DNA from: Chloroherpetonaceae bacterium
Lineage (GTDB): Bacteria > Bacteroidota > Chlorobiia > Chlorobiales > Thermochlorobacteraceae
Direction of reading: 5' to 3'
DNA length: 64,000 nucleotides
NCBI GenBank assembly: GCA_046292465.1
Contig: JBKBRB010000012.1
Location: forward strand, 7,282 to 71,281
Within the stretch, counting starts at the first letter, position 1, and each line of letters begins with the position of its first letter. The position numbers and the translations under genes were made by a program. The notes under the pieces are model-generated. The model was not told the DNA's origin. It saw only the letters and a list, made by a program, of their open reading frames with translations, and made no database searches. Below, piece by piece: positions 23,133 to 64,000 of this stretch.

Positions 23133-23277
23133 GGTTTGGTTGAGTTAATAGTTGAATTTGAAGATACTTCGCAAACAACCTTTGTCAAATTCTGACGGTT
23201 CTTTTCCGTCGAGCGAATCGCTATATTCGAGCCTGTTTGGAAATCTGTTTTTTCAATCTTCAAAATCTGCAACAAAA

Positions 23278-24366
<1,089 letters not shown>

Positions 24367-24390
24367 GCGTTCAGAAGCAGAAATGAAAAG

Positions 24391-24417
24391 GGGCGCACAA
24401 TCGCGCCCTTTTTGTTT
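24391..24417 (+). terminator. Rho-independent terminator after the aldolase gene
   Basis: GGGCGC-acaatc-GCGCCC followed by TTTTTGTTTT. Confidence 0.8.
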
Positions 24418-24461
24418 TGGCGTTGTTTGCCAAAAAGTTACGAGAAAAGAAAAATTAAAAT

Positions 24462-24532
24462 CACCGCGTTGGATTTTCTCGGGAATCGCTGCTGCTGCCC
24501 CAGCGACTCAACCTATCAAAACCCAAGCGGTG
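24462..24532 (-). ncRNA. Structured RNA element, copy A (unassigned family)
   Basis: Closing stem CACCGC(G)TTGG / CCAAGCGGTG. Inner hairpin TCGCTG-ctgctgccc-CAGCGA. The 42-nt core at 24477-24518 is identical to copy B. On the minus strand a U-rich run follows. Confidence 0.5.
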
Positions 24533-24643
24533 AAACTCTATGAATAGAAGCCTTAAATCTTACTTCGTTTTTTCTTCTGCCATGCGTTTGTCGTTTTCTT
24601 TTTCACACAACTAAACTCACTTATCACACACATAAAAATAAAA

Positions 24644-24709
24644 CCGCCTGAAGGCTCTCGGGAATCGCTGCTGCTGCCCCAGCGACTCAACCTATCAGCG
24701 TTCAGACGG
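24644..24709 (-). ncRNA. Structured RNA element, copy B
   Basis: Core 24656-24697 is identical to copy A. The closing stem CCGCCTGAA / TTCAGACGG is unrelated in sequence. Its single C.A mismatch on the plus strand is a G.U on the minus strand. Minus-strand U-run TTTTATTTTTAT follows. Confidence 0.5.
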
Positions 24710-24804
24710 CAAAGAACGAAATTCGCTGTAATAATACTCGCGAATCGCTTTTTCGGATATGATTTATATCACAACCCTTGACAAGCATTTTTTGCCTGAA
24801 ATCA

Positions 24805-24880
24805 GCGCCGCTCACGCCTTTGGGGATTCGCGAGACGCTGCTGCCCCATCTCCGACTCAACCTACTCGGCGCAAGCGGCA
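24805..24880 (-). ncRNA. Structured RNA element, copy C (diverged)
   Basis: Keeps GGGGAT, the loop GCTGCTGCCCC and CGACTCAACCTA. The inner stem is replaced by CG(C)GAGA/TCTCCG. The closing stem GCCGCTCACGCC/GGCGCAAGCGGC is a continuous 12 bp only if read on the minus strand (two G.U pairs). Confidence 0.45.
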
Positions 24881-25036
24881 TAGCCTTTCATCAAACGACG
24901 CTGAAATGATACGCCTCTCTTTCATATGTGATATTGCGCTACGTAACCGCTTGTGATAAACACATTTTGTGAACTACAGCACAACGCTTGCAGTCCCATT
25001 TGAAATGCGTAATTTTCCCAAACTATCAACAACGCA

Positions 25037-26353
25037 ATGAAAAAGTTACTTTCAGTTCTTGTCTATCTTTTGACTTTGCTCCCGCATACAATTCTTGCAC
25101 AATCCAAGCCGATTGCCTTTACAGGCGCAACGATTTATCCGATTGCTTCTCCGCCGATTGAGAACGGCACGCTCGTGATTCAGAACGGGAAAATTCTTGC
25201 CGTTGGTGCAAGCGTTGCAATTCCTTCCGATGCCACACGCATTGACGCCAGCGGCAAAATCATCACGGCGGGATTTGTCGATACGCACTCGCATATCGGT
25301 GGCGGCGATGGCGGCGACGCTTCCGCACCGATTCACCCCAGCGTGCGCATTTTAGACGCGATTGACGTTCGTAACGACACTTTCAAAAAAGCCCTCGCAG
25401 GCGGCATTACAACCGTGAATGTGATGCCCGGCTCCGGACACTTGCTTAGCGGTCAGACGGTTTATCTCAAACTGCGCAACGCAAACACCATTTCTCAAAT
25501 GCTCTTCTGCAACGACGAAACGAAGGAAATTTGCGGCGGCATTAAAATGGCAAACGGCACAAACCCCATGCGCGGCGGCGTCTTTCCCGGAACACGCGCC
25601 AAGTCGGCGGCAATGATTCGAAGCATTTTTATCAAAGCGCAAGACTATCAAAAGAAACAGAAAGACGCCGGCGGCAATCCTGATAAAATGCCCAAACGCG
25701 ATTTAGAGTTGGAAGCGTTAGTTGAAGTGTTGGAGGGCAAGCGAATTGTTCAGCACCACACGCACCGCGCCGATGATATTCTCACCGTGCTACGCATTGC
25801 CAAAGAGTTCGGCTACAAGGTCGTCCTGCACCATGTCAGCGAAGGGTGGAAGGTTGCAAACGAAATTGCCGAAGCCAAAGTCCCTTGCTCCATCATTGTG
25901 ATTGATTCGCCCGGCGGAAAGTTGGAAGCAAGCGAACTGCGCTACGAAACCGGCGGCATTTTGGAGAAAGCCGGCGTCGATGTTGCCTTTCACACCGACG
26001 ACGGCATTACGGATTCGCGGCTCTTTATGCGCTCGGCGGCGTTTGGCGTGCGTGCAGGAATGTCGGAACAAAAAGCCCTCGAAGGTTTAACGCTTGCAGG
26101 TGCGCGTATGCTCGGCTTGGAAAAGCGTATCGGCTCGCTTGAAGTCGGCAAAGATGCCGATTTCGTGATTCTCTCGGGAAGTCCGTTCAGCGTCTATACC
26201 AAAGTGCTTGAAACTTGGGTAGAAGGCGAAAAGCGATTCGACCGAAACAATCCTGACGACTACAAGTATGCTGTCGGCGGTTATCAAGTTTATCGCGGCG
26301 AAGTGTTTAATCACTATCAAAGCGTGATGCAAAACGAAGGAGGCGAGCAGTGA
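25037..26353 (+). CDS. Secreted amidohydrolase-superfamily metallohydrolase (dipeptidase/prolidase-like)
   Basis: Signal peptide, GFVDTHSHIG metal-binding HxH motif, VAFHTDD near the C-terminus. Confidence 0.8.
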   Translation: MKKLLSVLVYLLTLLPHTILAQSKPIAFTGATIYPIASPPIENGTLVIQNGKILAVGASVAIPSDATRIDASGKIITAGFVDTHSHIGGGDGGDASAPIHPSVRILDAIDVRNDTFKKALAGGITTVNVMPGSGHLLSGQTVYLKLRNANTISQMLFCNDETKEICGGIKMANGTNPMRGGVFPGTRAKSAAMIRSIFIKAQDYQKKQKDAGGNPDKMPKRDLELEALVEVLEGKRIVQHHTHRADDILTVLRIAKEFGYKVVLHHVSEGWKVANEIAEAKVPCSIIVIDSPGGKLEASELRYETGGILEKAGVDVAFHTDDGITDSRLFMRSAAFGVRAGMSEQKALEGLTLAGARMLGLEKRIGSLEVGKDADFVILSGSPFSVYTKVLETWVEGEKRFDRNNPDDYKYAVGGYQVYRGEVFNHYQSVMQNEGGEQ

Positions 26354-27567
26354 GGCATTTAAGGCTTTCTTCTTTGTTGCTCGTTTTTTGTTGTGCATCG
26401 TTTCAGGTTTCCTTCGCGCAACTTGCAATCAAAGGCGAGATGATTTACACGATGGCAGGCGCGCCGATTCAAAACGGCGTTGTGCTGGTGAATGGCGGCA
26501 AAATTGAGCGCGTCGGTTCGCAAACGGAAATTTCAATTCCAAGCCATTACAAAGTCATAACCGCAAAAGTCATTACGCCCGGACTGATTGATGCGCACAG
26601 CGTTGTGGGACTTGCCGGCATTTTTAATTACAACCACGACCAGGATCAATTAGAAAAATCCGACCCTATTCAGCCCGACCTTCGCGCCGTCGACGCTTAC
26701 AACGCCAATGAACGACTTGTAGGATTTCTCCGTGACTTCGGCATTACCACGCTTCACACTGGACACGGCACGGGCGCGCTCATTTCAGGACAAACGATGA
26801 TTGTTAAAACTCTCGGCACAACCGTTGAACAAGCCCTCGTTCAGCCTGTCTCCGCCGTTGCATTTACGCTGGGCGCAACCGTGCGCGAGAACTTCCAAAA
26901 GCCGGGCACGCGCTCAAAAGGCGTTGCTATGCTGCGCGAAAAATTTATCGAAGCGCAAGACTATGCGAAGAAGATGAAAACCAAAGACGCCTCAAAGCGT
27001 CCAACAAGAGATTTAAAGTTGGAAGTCCTCGCCGACATTCTCGACAAGAAAATTCCTGCGCTCATCACGGCTAATAAAGCCACCGAAATTATGACGGCTT
27101 TGCGCTTGCAAAAAGAATTTGGGTTCAGAATGATTTTGGACGGCGCGGCGGAAGCCTACCTGGTTTTGGAAGAACTCAAAGCCGCCAATGTGCCTGTGAT
27201 TTTGCACCCAACAATGGTGCGCACTTACGGCGATACGCGCAACGCCTCCTTTGAGACGGCGGCGAAATTGAAACAAGCAGGAATTAAATTCGCGCTTCAA
27301 TCGGGCTACGAAAGTTATGTTCCGAAAACGCGCGTTGTGCTTTACGAAGCCGCGCTTGCCGTCGCCAACGGGCTTCCTTTTGAAGACGGACTTCGCGCCA
27401 TTACGATTGATGCGGCAGACATTTTAGGCATTGCCAATCGCGTCGGCTCACTTGAAAAAGGCAAAGATGCTGATATTGTTTGCTTCGACGGCGACCCATT
27501 TGAATACACCTCTCACGTTTGCCAAGTTATTATCAACGGATACCTCGTCAAAGAGCAGTGTAATTAA
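26350..27567 (+). CDS. Secreted amidohydrolase-superfamily metallohydrolase, paralogous partner
   Basis: Signal peptide, GLIDAHS motif. GTG start overlaps the upstream stop (GTGA at 26350-26353). Confidence 0.8.
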   Translation: MRHLRLSSLLLVFCCASFQVSFAQLAIKGEMIYTMAGAPIQNGVVLVNGGKIERVGSQTEISIPSHYKVITAKVITPGLIDAHSVVGLAGIFNYNHDQDQLEKSDPIQPDLRAVDAYNANERLVGFLRDFGITTLHTGHGTGALISGQTMIVKTLGTTVEQALVQPVSAVAFTLGATVRENFQKPGTRSKGVAMLREKFIEAQDYAKKMKTKDASKRPTRDLKLEVLADILDKKIPALITANKATEIMTALRLQKEFGFRMILDGAAEAYLVLEELKAANVPVILHPTMVRTYGDTRNASFETAAKLKQAGIKFALQSGYESYVPKTRVVLYEAALAVANGLPFEDGLRAITIDAADILGIANRVGSLEKGKDADIVCFDGDPFEYTSHVCQVIINGYLVKEQCN

Positions 27568-60130: not shown

Positions 60131-60727
60131 CTAATCCGTGCTCTCTTTTGAGAACGGTGAAATGTGAGAAGAAACAATGCGGTGAGCATGAATTTGAGTG
60201 AATTCTTTCCAAGTTTTGACTTTGGTTGAAGCGCGAGAAGTTATAGCCTCTTGGAATGGTATTGAGAAAAGCGCGTCGCAAAGTGCGATGGCAAGCGCAT
60301 CGAAAGCGTCGGCGCGGGCTTTTGCACCTTGAAGCGCGAGCAAACTCTTCACCATAAATTCAACTTGTGCTTTTGCCGAATTGCCGTTGCCTGTAATGGC
60401 TTTCTTAACTTCACGCGGCGCATATTCCGAAATTGCAAGTCCGTAGTTCATCGATAAAACCATCACCACGCCGCGCACTTGTCCTAACTTCAATGCCGAC
60501 TGCACATTCTTTCCACAAAACGCCGTCTCGAGCGAAACCTTCGTGGGACGATACTGCTCGATAACACGCGCTAACTCGTCATAAATTTGCTTTAAGCGTT
60601 TTGGCATCTCATCTTTGGCACGGGTTGAAATCACGCCGTAATGCACGGCGCGACATGTGTTGCCCTTTTTTTCAACCAAGCCGAAGCCTGTAAAGAGCGT
60701 GCCGGGGTCTATGCCGAGCGTAATCAT
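60131..60727 (-). CDS. ruvC: Holliday junction resolvase RuvC
   Basis: ITLGIDPGTLFTGFGL, ETAFCGKNVQSALKLGQVRG, DAFDALAIALC. Start set to ATG 60727. Confidence 0.9.
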   Translation of the reverse strand: MITLGIDPGTLFTGFGLVEKKGNTCRAVHYGVISTRAKDEMPKRLKQIYDELARVIEQYRPTKVSLETAFCGKNVQSALKLGQVRGVVMVLSMNYGLAISEYAPREVKKAITGNGNSAKAQVEFMVKSLLALQGAKARADAFDALAIALCDALFSIPFQEAITSRASTKVKTWKEFTQIHAHRIVSSHISPFSKESTD

Positions 60728-60754
60728 TATCAATTCTGTTCTGAAAAAATTATC

Positions 60755-61516
60755 ATGCAAAAAAAGCCGTTGCGCGTAGGCTTTCAAGGCGAGTTCGGTG
60801 CATATTCAGAAATTGCCGCTGAAAAAATCGGCAAGCCAATTCCGTTTCCAACATTCGAGCGCGTCTTCGAAGCCGTCCTCAACAAACAAGTCGATTGCGC
60901 CGTCATTCCAATTGCCAACGCGATTGCAGGCATGGTGAAGGAAAATGCAGAACTTTTATGGCGATTTCAAAAACGCATCAAAATTTTAGCCGAATCAACG
61001 ATTCCAATTCTACACTGCTTGCTTGGCGTGCAAGGGAGTTCAATAAAAACAGCAACCGAAGTTCACTCGCATTGGCAAGCCCTCGCACAGTGCCAAAAAC
61101 TTTTTCAACGCCACAAGCACTTAAAGCCTGTTGAAACTTACGACACGGCGGGTAGCGCAAAATGGCTTGCCGAATCAGGCAAGAGCACGCAACTCGTCAT
61201 TGCCTCTGAACGCGCCGCTGAACGATACGGACTGCATGTGTTGAAGCGCGCCATCAACGACATAAAAGAAAATAAAACACAGTTTTACATCATCGCCTCA
61301 GCCACATCGCGCTTGAACCTTTCGCAAGAAAACGAAAAGAGCGTCATCATCTGCAAGTCGCTACAAGAAGCACTGCCCTACATTCCGCACGCGCTACGAT
61401 GCGACGCCATTCCAACGCGCAGGAAACCTTTTGAGATGAACTACCTGCTCGAAGTTCGTGGCGAAATTTCCGACAAGCACGTCGCGCACTTGGGAACATT
61501 TGGTAATGTGCAATAA
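60755..61516 (+). CDS. pheA: Prephenate dehydratase
   Basis: VGFQGEFGAYSE, the IPIANAIAGMV segment, and NxTQFYII (equivalent to the TRF motif region). Start set to ATG 60755. Confidence 0.75.
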   Translation: MQKKPLRVGFQGEFGAYSEIAAEKIGKPIPFPTFERVFEAVLNKQVDCAVIPIANAIAGMVKENAELLWRFQKRIKILAESTIPILHCLLGVQGSSIKTATEVHSHWQALAQCQKLFQRHKHLKPVETYDTAGSAKWLAESGKSTQLVIASERAAERYGLHVLKRAINDIKENKTQFYIIASATSRLNLSQENEKSVIICKSLQEALPYIPHALRCDAIPTRRKPFEMNYLLEVRGEISDKHVAHLGTFGNVQ

Positions 61517-61560
61517 AACAAATAGCATTAAAAGGCTAATCACACAACTAACGCTTGACT

Positions 61561-62361
61561 ATGAAAACACACACTAAAACACTGCTGACATTCTTACTCA
61601 GTTCGGTCTTGACATTGGGCTACGCGCTCTATGTGCAAGGCAATTCGGGCGGACGAACAGGCGCAACACAACTCAACGGCGACGGGTGCATTTGTCATGG
61701 TGCCGCCTCTTCTGCTGTGAGCGTAACCATCACAGGACCTGATACGGTCTTAATCGGCTCAACCAATACCTACACCGTAACCATCACAGGCGGACCGTTG
61801 GTGCGCGGCGGAACAAACATCGCCACCTCATCTGGAACGCTCGATGTGGTGCAAGGAAGCGGACTGCGAAAAGTCGGAAATGAGCTCACGCACAGCACGC
61901 CAAAAGCCCCTGCAAATAACGCCGTTACATTCGACTTCACGTTCACAGCGCCAAACACCGCAGGAAACGCCATTCTTTATGCTAACGGCAACAGTGTCAA
62001 TTTCAACGGCAACAGCGCAGGCGACGCATGGAACTTTGCACCAAACAAAACCGTCGTCGTTTCAGCCACAAGCACGGCACCCACGCAAAACCGTCCTGCG
62101 GGATTTGAACTTGCGCAAAACTTCCCGAACCCATTTAATCCGTCTACAACAATTCAATTCACGTTGCCGCAAGATGATGTTGTGCGATTAAAAGTCTACG
62201 ATGCAAGCGGTCGCGAAGTGCAAACGCTCTTGAACGGACGCACATCGAGAGGAACACACACGGTTTCGTTTAATGCCACGAATTTAGCCAGTGGGGTCTA
62301 TCTCTATCGCTTGGAAACGAGCGCGTTTTCAGAGACGAAGAAAATGTTGCTCATCAAGTAA
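61561..62361 (+). CDS. Secreted protein with a T9SS C-terminal sorting domain
   Basis: Signal peptide. The C-terminus ELAQNFPNPFNPSTTIQFTL...SGVYLYRLET...KKMLLIK is a canonical Por/T9SS CTD. The N-domain contains DGCICHG. Confidence 0.85.
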   Translation: MKTHTKTLLTFLLSSVLTLGYALYVQGNSGGRTGATQLNGDGCICHGAASSAVSVTITGPDTVLIGSTNTYTVTITGGPLVRGGTNIATSSGTLDVVQGSGLRKVGNELTHSTPKAPANNAVTFDFTFTAPNTAGNAILYANGNSVNFNGNSAGDAWNFAPNKTVVVSATSTAPTQNRPAGFELAQNFPNPFNPSTTIQFTLPQDDVVRLKVYDASGREVQTLLNGRTSRGTHTVSFNATNLASGVYLYRLETSAFSETKKMLLIK

Positions 62362-62383
62362 GCAAGAAGAGGTAGGCAAAAAG

Positions 62384-62415
62384 AAGGCGGATGAAAAGTC
62401 CGCCTTTTAATTTTT
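62384..62415. terminator. Bidirectional terminator between convergent genes
   Basis: AAGGCGGA-tgaaaag-TCCGCCTT followed by TTAATTTTT, with an A-run upstream. Confidence 0.7.
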
Positions 62416-62781
62416 CGGTTGGAGCACCATGCCCAAAATCCACGAGACAACCGTAATGACGATTGAGCCTAAGACAGCCGCGCCGAAACTTTCCACACGA
62501 AACTCGGGCACAAAGTAAGCCGCAACGACGAGAATCACGGCGTTGATGACAAGCAAGAACAATCCAAATGTCAAGGCAATCAGCGGAATTGAAAAGATAA
62601 TGAAAACAGGCTTCACAATCGCGTTGAGCAAGCCAATAACAAGGGCGGCAAGAAGCGTTGTGCCTAAGCCTTTAATCGTAATCCCATCGATGAAGGTGGC
62701 GGCGCAATAGACGGCAACTGCATCAACGAGCCAAGTAATGAGAAATCTCGAGAAGAAGGACATGGTGGTTAGTTTATTCAA
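62407..62781 (-). CDS. DUF360 / phage-holin-4_2 family 4-TM membrane protein
   Basis: 124 aa. LLNAIVKPVFIIFSIPLIALTFGLFLLVINA is typical of the YvlD/DUF360 family. Confidence 0.75.
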   Translation of the reverse strand: MNKLTTMSFFSRFLITWLVDAVAVYCAATFIDGITIKGLGTTLLAALVIGLLNAIVKPVFIIFSIPLIALTFGLFLLVINAVILVVAAYFVPEFRVESFGAAVLGSIVITVVSWILGMVLQPKN

Positions 62782-64000
62782 AATGCTTTGTCAAGGTCAG
62801 CGCGAACTTTCTCGCGTTTTTTCTCGCCTTCAAGAGCACCCATGGCTTCATAGAATGCTTGGTCATAGTTGCGCGTTTTCACCACGACGGGCATTGGAAC
62901 GCCGTGTCCCATAATGAGTGCTTGCTGTTTCGTATCCAAACTTGCCAAAATGCTCCGCAAACCGCTGGCGTTAGAAACGCCTGAAAGAACCGCGTTAATA
63001 TCTTTTTCGTCAGAAAGCGCGGCGACGATTTTCGTGCCGATTTGCGAGAGAATTTCATCGTCAATGCCCGACGGACGCTGGTCCACGAGCAAAAGTGAGA
63101 CATAATACTTGCGCAGTTCGCGCGCGATTTTACCAAACGACGTTTGCGCCGCCGCACGCGGATTGAGAAACTTGTGCGCCTCTTCAATGGTGATGACAAG
63201 TTGTTTCGGCTTATCGGCTTCGTTCTGTGTGCGAAGGTAGTTGTCGGTTCGGTCTTTGTAGGTTTCTTCGACGCGGCGCGTGATGATGTTGGCAACGAGC
63301 AAGTAGCTCATCATGTTGTCGTATTTGCCAAACTCGACAACAACGCTGACGCCATTGAGCAAATCGGTAATCAAATGATTAATGACATCGATTTTTTCTT
63401 TGCGCGGGTTGAAGTCCAAAAAGCTGCAAGTCTGTCGAAGCCGTTCTAAGCGTCGCCACAAGGCTTGCATTGACGAAGTGAGAAGGTTGCGGCGGCTGGC
63501 AAAGTCCTCAATCGCCGCTGGGTCGCCGCTATCCATCAGGTTCATGAACTCGGTCAGCCAAGCATTGCCAAAGGCATTTTTCAAGATGTAAGTGTATTCA
63601 GCGGCAGTGGGGTTGAGCCGAAGTTCTTCTTGCAAAAGCAAAATATCTTCGGGTTCGATTTGCTCAACGCTAATGCGGACTTCGTGGTCGCATCGTGCGC
63701 CGCGCCGTTGAGAGCCTTCTTTATCGAGCGAATAGACTTTCACCTTGCCGCGATGTGCAAACAATGGTTGCAAGCCTTTGACGGACGTTTGTCCTGTGCC
63801 TTCGAAAGTGCCTTTCGTGCCGTATTCGTTGTGCATATCGAAGACGAGGTTCACGGCGGCGTCCGTATGAATAAAGCCTGCAAGAAGCAATCGCGTGATG
63901 AAGGTTTTGCCCGTGCCTGTCCGACCAAAAACGGCACTGCTCCGCTCTGAAAATGTTTTCAGGTCTAAGCAAACGGCTTGCTCCATGTCGAGCGGCGTGC
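62778..64000 (-). CDS. HerA-like (DUF87) P-loop ATPase, 5' end beyond the window
   Basis: Walker A FGRTGTGKTF and Walker B region LVITIEEAHKF. The reading frame stays open upstream of the track's internal Met to the window edge (..TPLDMEQAV..). Its stop overlaps the DUF360 start (ATGA). Confidence 0.75.
   Translation of the reverse strand, partial: TPLDMEQAVCLDLKTFSERSSAVFGRTGTGKTFITRLLLAGFIHTDAAVNLVFDMHNEYGTKGTFEGTGQTSVKGLQPLFAHRGKVKVYSLDKEGSQRRGARCDHEVRISVEQIEPEDILLLQEELRLNPTAAEYTYILKNAFGNAWLTEFMNLMDSGDPAAIEDFASRRNLLTSSMQALWRRLERLRQTCSFLDFNPRKEKIDVINHLITDLLNGVSVVVEFGKYDNMMSYLLVANIITRRVEETYKDRTDNYLRTQNEADKPKQLVITIEEAHKFLNPRAAAQTSFGKIARELRKYYVSLLLVDQRPSGIDDEILSQIGTKIVAALSDEKDINAVLSGVSNASGLRSILASLDTKQQALIMGHGVPMPVVVKTRNYDQAFYEAMGALEGEKKREKVRADLDKAF

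Follow-up and report, generated by a model that had tools for sequence, protein, structure and literature searches.

What kind of element occupies a gap of 670 bases that separates two enzyme genes in a green-sulfur-type hot-spring member of the Chloroherpetonaceae, where a first-pass annotation of contig JBKBRB010000012.1 had pointed to three tandem copies, each of about 70 nucleotides, of a structured RNA probably read from the minus strand? We addressed this question in the whole 64,000-nucleotide stretch that contains the gap (hereafter the window) and in homologous loci from other genomes and metagenomes. All three copies are present almost exactly where they had been placed, and our analysis demonstrates that the locus is a real, conserved, structured and uncatalogued minus-strand RNA locus of one Chlorobi family, which is best filed as a lineage-specific bacterial small RNA (sRNA) that repeats a hairpin module and has terminator-like ends. 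In our view, it is very probably some kind of structured sRNA that is specific to its lineage and is transcribed independently; the more specific proposal, that its modules serve as binding sites for a protein or a ligand, would have somewhat less than an even chance of being correct. The locus is not surprising in kind, yet it is clean.

On the minus strand, hairpin C (24807-24879) comes first in the direction of the RNA, hairpin B (24643-24710) lies in the middle and hairpin A (24462-24532) comes last. Their outer stems comprise 12, 14 and 15 bp, respectively, the last with one bulged C, and a covariance model (CM), which was built from the A and B types and used to search the window and the fetched loci, matched them with 27.9, 95.4 and 101.3 bits. 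The 42-nt core reported to be shared by A (24477-24518) and B (24656-24697) proved to be 100% identical, with C agreeing at 67% in gapless register, and the shared blocks GCTGCCCC...GACTCAACC occur three times in the window and in none of 100 shuffles. In hairpin B, the outer stem encloses an internal loop GAUA/GAG, GG/CC pairs, a UU bulge and a 9-bp helix GAGUCGCUG/CAGCGAUUC that is capped by the loop GGGCAGCAG. Hairpin C is built from an internal loop GAGUA/CAAA, GG/CC pairs, a UU bulge and the lower helix GAGUCG/CGAAUC, upon which an extended helix GAGAUG/CGUCUC carries the same apical loop GGGCAGCAG. The inner stem of C, which had been described as exchanged in its entirety, is exchanged only in its upper part, where 3 bp (CUG/CAG) are replaced by the 6 bp of GAGAUG/CGUCUC together with a bulged G, but the lower part GAGUCG/CGA(A)UC is retained. 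Likewise, the closing stems, described as unrelated, do differ in their inner halves, but their outermost parts are homologous (CCGCUUG in A and C, CCGUCUG in B). A common architecture is found in about 40 distinct homologues and consists of an outer stem (P1) of 12-15 bp, an internal loop 5'-GRUA/5'-SARA, the GG/CC pairs, the UU bulge, a helix GAGUCG/CGAUUC with an invariant G.U pair, a variable upper helix of 3-6 bp and an apical loop G-N-GCAG(CAG).

The three copies each form a long hairpin with bulges, with minus-strand z scores of -5.6 for A, -4.3 for B and -1.6 for C, and all three hairpins are kept in the minimum-energy fold of the predicted whole transcript of 461 nt (z -5.15). Since a joint MAFFT alignment of the three types places the CAG-repeat loop of C 3 nt out of register, the A/B and C types were analyzed separately, and a CM-guided alignment was used for the former. 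In figures that are supportive rather than a formal test, because the homologues are closely related, and with an inner helix that is invariant within the A/B type, 95.8% of the cells in the A/B-type alignment (29 distinct sequences) are paired, compared to 31-55% with slid partners, and 98.0% in the C-type alignment (MAFFT, 12 distinct sequences), compared to 32-47% in the slid controls. Both sides have changed in 9 of the 15 P1 pairs of the A/B type and in 5 pairs of the C type, and in either case the covariation score was reached by none of 500 shuffles. An equal pairing result was obtained with an unfitted MAFFT alignment, on which RNAalifold predicts the same structure. Retained pairing well above the slid controls in homologues of both types thus bears out the earlier suggestion of a selected RNA fold.

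The variation is unevenly distributed along the hairpin. P1 and the upper helix vary by compensatory change, and the internal loop, the UU bulge and the lower inner helix with its G.U pair are constant. The apical loop occurs as GGG-, GAG- or GCG-CAGCAG or as GAGCAG, so that its second position may be G, A or C, with GCAG as the invariant portion. The short form GAGCAG, a 6-nt loop that has lost 3 of 9 loop nucleotides, is found in hairpin B of locus L033 (3600-3675), and in hairpin A of locus L034 (3474-3553) GAUAGG has become GGUGGA, which moves the GG/CC clamp by one position. About 47 nt of the core are identical between the window and the genomes of the Candidatus (Ca.) Thermochlorobacter aerophilum type, while the proteins that they share are only about 72-78% identical, which indicates that the core is under strong purifying selection.

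The strand of the RNA follows from the wobble pairs, since on the minus strand the paired cells include 62 G.U and 4 A.C combinations, a ratio that is reversed on the plus strand. Folding points the same way, with much lower z scores on the minus strand than on the plus strand for A (-5.6 compared to -3.75) and B (-4.3 compared to -2.2). Additional G.U pairs appear in new variants, such as hairpin A of locus L036 (3383-3462), in which a C>U and an A>G change in the inner helix both yield G.U, and the U-rich tails described below are concordant with the minus-strand orientation that had been proposed. The opposite view would place the element in the 3' untranslated region (UTR) of the aldolase gene on one side of the gap or in the 5' UTR of the amidohydrolase genes on the other, where Shine-Dalgarno-like sequences would be the pairing partners of the C-rich loops CUGCUGCCCC, a known type of sRNA seed. 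In favor of this view, most loci keep the array together with the amidohydrolase side, and hairpin A beats its shuffles on the plus strand as well (z -3.75; B -2.2, C -1.7). However, reading the plus strand turns the 62 paired cells into A.C mismatches and leaves the hairpins without U-tracts behind them, the array of locus L017 exists without amidohydrolases and other loci lack the aldolase, and the single-copy elements of other genomes lie on the coding strand of their neighbors in the orientation that corresponds to the minus strand of the window. In addition, the aldolase gene possesses a clean plus-strand intrinsic terminator of its own (GGGCGCACAATCGCGCCC followed by TTTTTGTTTTG; 24391-24408, T-run to 24418), so that the hairpins are not needed for its termination. 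A plus-strand function is therefore barely credible.

Neither a coding region nor a plain repeat of the DNA accounts for the locus, as had been argued before. Three small open reading frames (ORFs) over the region have no Pfam match, the 59-codon ORF on the minus strand has lost its AUG in loci L010 and L016, the C-B spacer contains insertions and deletions, and no ORF is conserved, for which reasons the coding reading was rejected; ARAGORN found no tRNA or tmRNA gene in 24000-25300. Imperfect palindromes that lie repeated between genes, and at which assemblies break, could also act at the level of DNA, as a repetitive extragenic palindrome (REP) or a miniature inverted-repeat transposable element (MITE), as an integron attC-like site or as a palindrome bound by a protein, with no function as RNA. 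The distribution of the core speaks against this. When one genome of each of 185,579 species was scanned for exact matches to the pattern, the core was recovered in 7 assemblies, all of them metagenome-assembled genomes (MAGs) of Chlorobi (named Ca. Thermochlorobacter, Thermochlorobacteriaceae, Chloroherpetonaceae or Chlorobiales), and each has a single locus with one to three copies. No copy was found in collections of phages, plasmids and viral contigs, where one pattern match (L026) is due to chance and has no CM match, no transposase or integrase genes are neighbors of the element, and with the CM search, neither the rest of the 64-kb window nor about 400 kb of fetched loci yielded an additional copy. 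The concern that the core might be dispersed in many copies next to mobile genes can thus be set aside, and a mobile or dispersed repeat was rejected. Moreover, the 62:4 asymmetry of G.U pairs and the polar U-tails are not expected of a site in double-stranded DNA, and a conserved center with variable ends is unlike attC. We regard a role as DNA alone as very improbable.

A metagenome scan contributed 18 more loci and homologues of the amidohydrolase another 4, and the element is restricted to Chloroherpetonaceae and Ca. Thermochlorobacter, with one locus per genome. Contigs from metagenomes and from Logan break inside the array at loci L014 (1-239), L019 (10304-10383), L032 (1-47) and L035 (1-54); in the 19-kb contig Ga0308419_1000997, hairpins B and C lie at one end (L014) and hairpin A at the other (L019). 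The identical cores of 42-47 nt evidently act as repeats that break metagenome assemblies at the locus, which is of practical concern, as MAGs may under-report the locus for this reason. At locus L004 (7418-7497; YM_bin1, a Chloroherpetonaceae MAG), a lone A-type hairpin with an outer stem identical to that of hairpin A in the window follows the gene of a large protein with FG-GAP and type IX secretion system (T9SS) tail. The upstream neighbors of this gene are homologous to the window genes at 60641-63986, so that one more copy might be present in the window genome just past the window end.

Every locus next to the amidohydrolase genes contains three hairpins, which on the RNA strand always follow one another as C-B-A, and the trio of locus L017 adjoins an AlaDH/PNT gene, the amidohydrolases being lost. 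In genomes of the Ca. T. aerophilum type and of the GBChlB type, a single A-like hairpin is found instead. It lies between miaB on one side and an HU-like gene with ruvX on the other, has the same orientation as these genes and precedes the HU-like gene and ruvX by about 75-100 nt. The string miaB-HU-ruvX is contiguous in another Chloroherpetonaceae MAG, with a 40-nt gap and no element (L030, 11422-11463), whereas in loci L005 (4660-5010), L003 (2331-2560) and L012 (7714-7963) it is interrupted by about 250-400 nt that contain a promoter-like box and the hairpin; this difference indicates that the RNA gene resides at different loci in sister lineages. No CM match was obtained around miaB in Chloroherpeton thalassium or in two further Chloroherpetonaceae MAGs (about 20 kb per genome), and the exact-core scan was likewise without a match in these three genomes.

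The single-copy arrangement bears on a cis-acting alternative, in which the element would be a regulatory terminator, that is an attenuator or a riboswitch-like aptamer within a terminator stem, through which a ligand or a protein controls read-through into the HU-like gene and ruvX or, in the arrays, antisense transcription into the convergent gene. A conserved core that is enclosed by a stem and followed by a U-tract, the short distance to a co-oriented HU-like gene and ruvX, and a tandem layout that recalls tandem riboswitches are all in keeping with such a device. However, the gene downstream of hairpin A is convergent in all 12 array loci, which leaves nothing to be regulated in cis, miaB and the HU gene are adjacent without the element in related genomes, and there is no evident alternative anti-terminator pairing. 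A TAnnTTTG-like motif past the terminator of the single-copy loci could furthermore be the HU gene's own promoter. A position upstream of a co-oriented gene, which for a riboswitch would be the rule in most occurrences, is thus confined to the single-copy loci, and cis-regulation appears quite improbable to us. The earlier statement that the transcripts run against both flanking genes is true of the clade to which the window belongs, but not of the genomes in which the single hairpin is co-oriented between miaB and HU.

The array has the appearance of a separate transcription unit, since no protein gene lies upstream of it on the minus strand and the downstream gene is always convergent. The U-rich runs that had been noticed directly after A and B are real and recur in 12 of 12 arrays. 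Hairpin B is followed by UUUUAUUUUUAU (24631-24642), which together with the outer stem of B resembles the end of an intrinsic terminator, and hairpin A by AUUUUAAUUUUUCUUUUC (24444-24461), likely the 3' end of the transcript, after which comes the convergent gene. Within the most U-rich 8-nt segment behind the stem, the 12 arrays contain 6-8 U after A, 5-7 after B and 3-4 after C, the single-copy loci contain 7, and the weakest B tail is that of locus L007, in which B abuts A. A stem followed by a U-tract, and hence predicted intrinsic termination, is therefore seen for A and B and not for C. In the B-A spacer (24600-24636), the RNA strand carries an imperfect direct repeat (UUUAUGUGUGUGAUAA / UUUAGUUGUGUGAAAA) that is partly conserved in other arrays and absent in L007; no convincing promoter for hairpin A was found.

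Candidate promoter elements precede both C and B on the minus strand. Upstream of C lie a CRP/FNR-like palindrome TGTGCTGTAGTTCACA of the form TGTG-N8-CACA (24968-24983), in which GTG...CACAA does not vary among 8 arrays (L017 among them), a second palindrome TGTG-N5-CACA (24952-24964) and a third of the type TTGC-N5-GCAA (24933-24947), both of putative function and with columns invariant in the arrays, and a -10-like hexamer TATCAT (24906-24911). Transcription would start near 24899, about 7 nt after TATCAT and about 41 nt downstream of the third palindrome, and the leader GCGUCGUUUGAUGAAAGG (24880-24911 including TATCAT), predicted to be single-stranded, runs into C with CGTA, GT(C/G)GTT and TG conserved in 8 arrays. 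Between C and B, a second CRP/FNR-like palindrome TGTGATATAAATCATA (24758-24773) occupies a class-II-like position, its center 29 nt upstream of TATTAT (24731-24736). This hexamer, which precedes the conserved leader GUUCUUU (24711-24717), may serve as the -10 element of a second start near 24724, relative to which the box would be located at about -41.5. In this region, GTGAT...CATA of the box as well as AGTAT and GTTCTTT are invariant in 8 arrays. The upstream blocks are conserved in the same number of arrays, including L017 despite its different upstream gene, and the two CRP/FNR-like boxes are the sole sites with at most one mismatch from TGTGA-N6-TCACA in the 64-kb window. Similarly, in the single-copy loci with their unrelated miaB-HU surroundings, a TGTGA-N6-TCACG box and, 18 nt further on, TATCAT precede the hairpin. 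Both boxes may define a CRP/FNR-type regulon in this clade.

The transcript would accordingly present its modules in the order C, B, A, with a short form that ends after B and a long form that ends after A, and the outer stems of A and B would double as intrinsic terminators. Each module would then display one invariant unit, composed of the GRUA/SARA loop, the GG/CC clamp, the UU bulge, GAGUCG/CGAUUC and the G-rich apical loop, as a possible binding site for a trans-acting partner, more probably a protein than an mRNA that pairs with a seed, and with three such sites per molecule, we favor a role as a multivalent sequestering or scaffold RNA. The proposal of a recognition site derives from the pattern of conservation, in which a helix is fixed on both strands together with its wobble pair and a bulge, but the stems on either side covary and the loop tolerates change. 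This pattern is unusual for an sRNA that pairs through a seed and is expected of a protein site, possibly also of a ligand site or a tertiary contact.

Tandem paralogous sRNAs with identical seeds, such as Qrr, LhrC and PrrF, are common, and a classical base-pairing sRNA is the main rival explanation. In that case, the G-rich apical loop GGGGCAGCAGC, present three times, would be the seed for C/U-rich, GCUGCUGCCCC-like sites in mRNAs, and the remainder of the hairpin would serve stability and termination only. The loop is single-stranded and largely conserved, with GCAG invariant in about 40 variants, and a terminator hairpin with a U-tail is typical of trans-acting sRNAs. However, constraint is weaker on the loop than on the paired module below it, as shown by its variable second position and the shortened loop in hairpin B of L033, and a seed leaves the frozen helix, the G.U pair and the bulge unexplained. 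Moreover, apart from the elements themselves, the window contains no complementary site with at most one mismatch, and the best duplex among 59 start regions, with the amidohydrolase leader (-16.7 kcal/mol), lies only about 2 standard deviations from the mean at a site that orthologous loci do not conserve. An 11-nt similarity, CAAACTATCAA, in the amidohydrolase leader was dropped because it is not conserved across loci either. On balance, we consider seed pairing unlikely.

Several points weigh against an independently transcribed RNA that offers a recognition site. No candidate binding protein was identified, and the invariance of the inner helix in A and B could partly result from gene conversion between the paralogous copies, although gene conversion would not account for the identity of the core with that of the single-copy genomes. 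The roughly 60 genes available for a target scan are too few to exclude the G-rich loop as a seed. The start sites and promoters are recognized by their patterns, from which transcription is deduced, and the minus-strand features were not flagged in a generic scan for sigma-70 promoters and terminators, whose promoter pattern may differ from that of this lineage; the terminator scan is silent because the long, bulged and thus atypical hairpins exceed its loop limit, and the sigma-70 scan because palindromes take the place of the -35 element. Finally, the spacing between box and hexamer is 21 nt before B compared to 18 nt in the single-copy loci, and no CRP homologue is encoded in the DNA examined, that is the window and the fetched loci.

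If the recognition-site reading is carried one step further, the frozen mid-helix and the loop would form a high-affinity, aptamer-like site for a protein or a small ligand, and the C-B-A trio a multivalent sponge or sensor RNA under the control of a CRP/FNR-family regulator, a tentative idea that we hold to be possible though doubtful. Were it true, a sequestration circuit like that of Csr/Rsm would have arisen independently in aerobic photoheterotrophic Chlorobi, and the versions with one and with three hairpins would represent a natural dosage series. To our knowledge, hardly any RNA-based regulation has been described in Chlorobi beyond a few bioinformatic motifs, and we know of no RNA regulators in those that live as uncultured aerobic photoheterotrophs in hot-spring mats (Ca. 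Thermochlorobacter and other Chloroherpetonaceae). For these organisms, the locus provides a well-defined sRNA candidate whose strand is clear, whose ends and regulatory boxes are probable, and whose core of 47 nt has remained constant while the neighboring proteins are now about 75% identical. Existing metatranscriptomes of the mats allow a direct test, the hairpin can be used as bait for its partner, and the paired CRP/FNR-like boxes would give a first handle on a regulon.

The genes around the array lie on the plus strand. On one side, the DeoC/LacD-family aldolase gene occupies 23152-24366; on the other side, two amidohydrolase genes (25037-26353 and 26350-27567) overlap by 4 nt and are paralogues with about 33% identity. 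Both CRP-like boxes lie in the gap that is shared with this divergent operon. The first amidohydrolase of the window is 100% identical to a protein of a MAG named 'Chloroherpetonaceae bacterium'. Its homologues are at least 90% identical inside the clade, with the next ones in Bacteroidota at about 73%, a drop that hints at lateral acquisition.

The element does not belong to a known riboswitch or sRNA family, in agreement with the first-pass annotation, which had recognized none. The 4227 models of Rfam 15 gave no match at the gathering score in the whole window, and at E<=10 (801 nt and 101 nt) they gave only noise, the best match reaching 23 bits against a cut-off of 50, with none over the core on the minus strand. 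Sub-threshold matches to ylbH, S4-Bacteroidia and snoRNA fragments were discarded because of wrong strand or partial cover. Chlorobi-1, the one motif of sRNA type so far described from Chlorobi, had no match even at E<=10 on 101-801 nt, and no paper was found in the literature searched that ties Thermochlorobacter to an RNA motif or to such an sRNA.

Among known systems, REP and MITE sequences are likewise imperfect palindromes of about 70 nt that are repeated and intergenic, but the present element differs from them in its one locus per genome, its fixed C-B-A order, its strand-specific G.U pairs and its polar U-tails. Terminator-embedded aptamers such as the HMP-PP/thiS riboswitch also combine a small conserved core with an intrinsic terminator stem, whereas the array loci have no downstream gene, no Rfam match and no link to a class of metabolic genes. 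A closer likeness of kind is found within the phylum. The Chlorobi-1 RNA motif consists of hairpins followed by a rho-independent terminator. It is restricted to Chlorobi, was scored as neither cis-regulatory nor a switch, and is presumed to be an independent sRNA (RF01696; Weinberg et al., 2010, PMC2864571). The two share the phylum and the combination of hairpins with terminator-like ends, a resemblance of kind only, because the motif described here is made of one to three copies of one module instead of two different hairpins and occurs only in Chloroherpetonaceae and Thermochlorobacter.

The arrangement of neighboring duplicated modules with identical cores and diverged outer stems, some copies of which have their own promoter and terminator (predicted ones in our case), is shared with Qrr1-5, PrrF1/2, LhrC1-5 and FopS of Bacteroides. 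The seeds of those sRNAs, however, are single-stranded and their stems vary, whereas here a paired module with a G.U pair and a bulge is the most conserved part. With regard to CsrB and RsmX/Y/Z, the repeated-module sRNAs that it would most resemble in its mode of action, the apical loop reads G-N-GCAG(CAG) and not A(N)GGA, so that multiple GGA loop motifs, which characterize the Csr/Rsm RNAs, are not found; GGA occurs solely in the GAGCAGCAG variants, and most loops are GGGCAGCAG. Furthermore, the element has only one to three modules, and its conservation reaches deep into the helix. Nevertheless, it shares with CsrB and RsmX/Y/Z a repeated stem-loop module, a conserved purine-rich apical loop, a terminator end, a regulated promoter of its own, which in our case is a putative one, and multivalency as the proposed logic.

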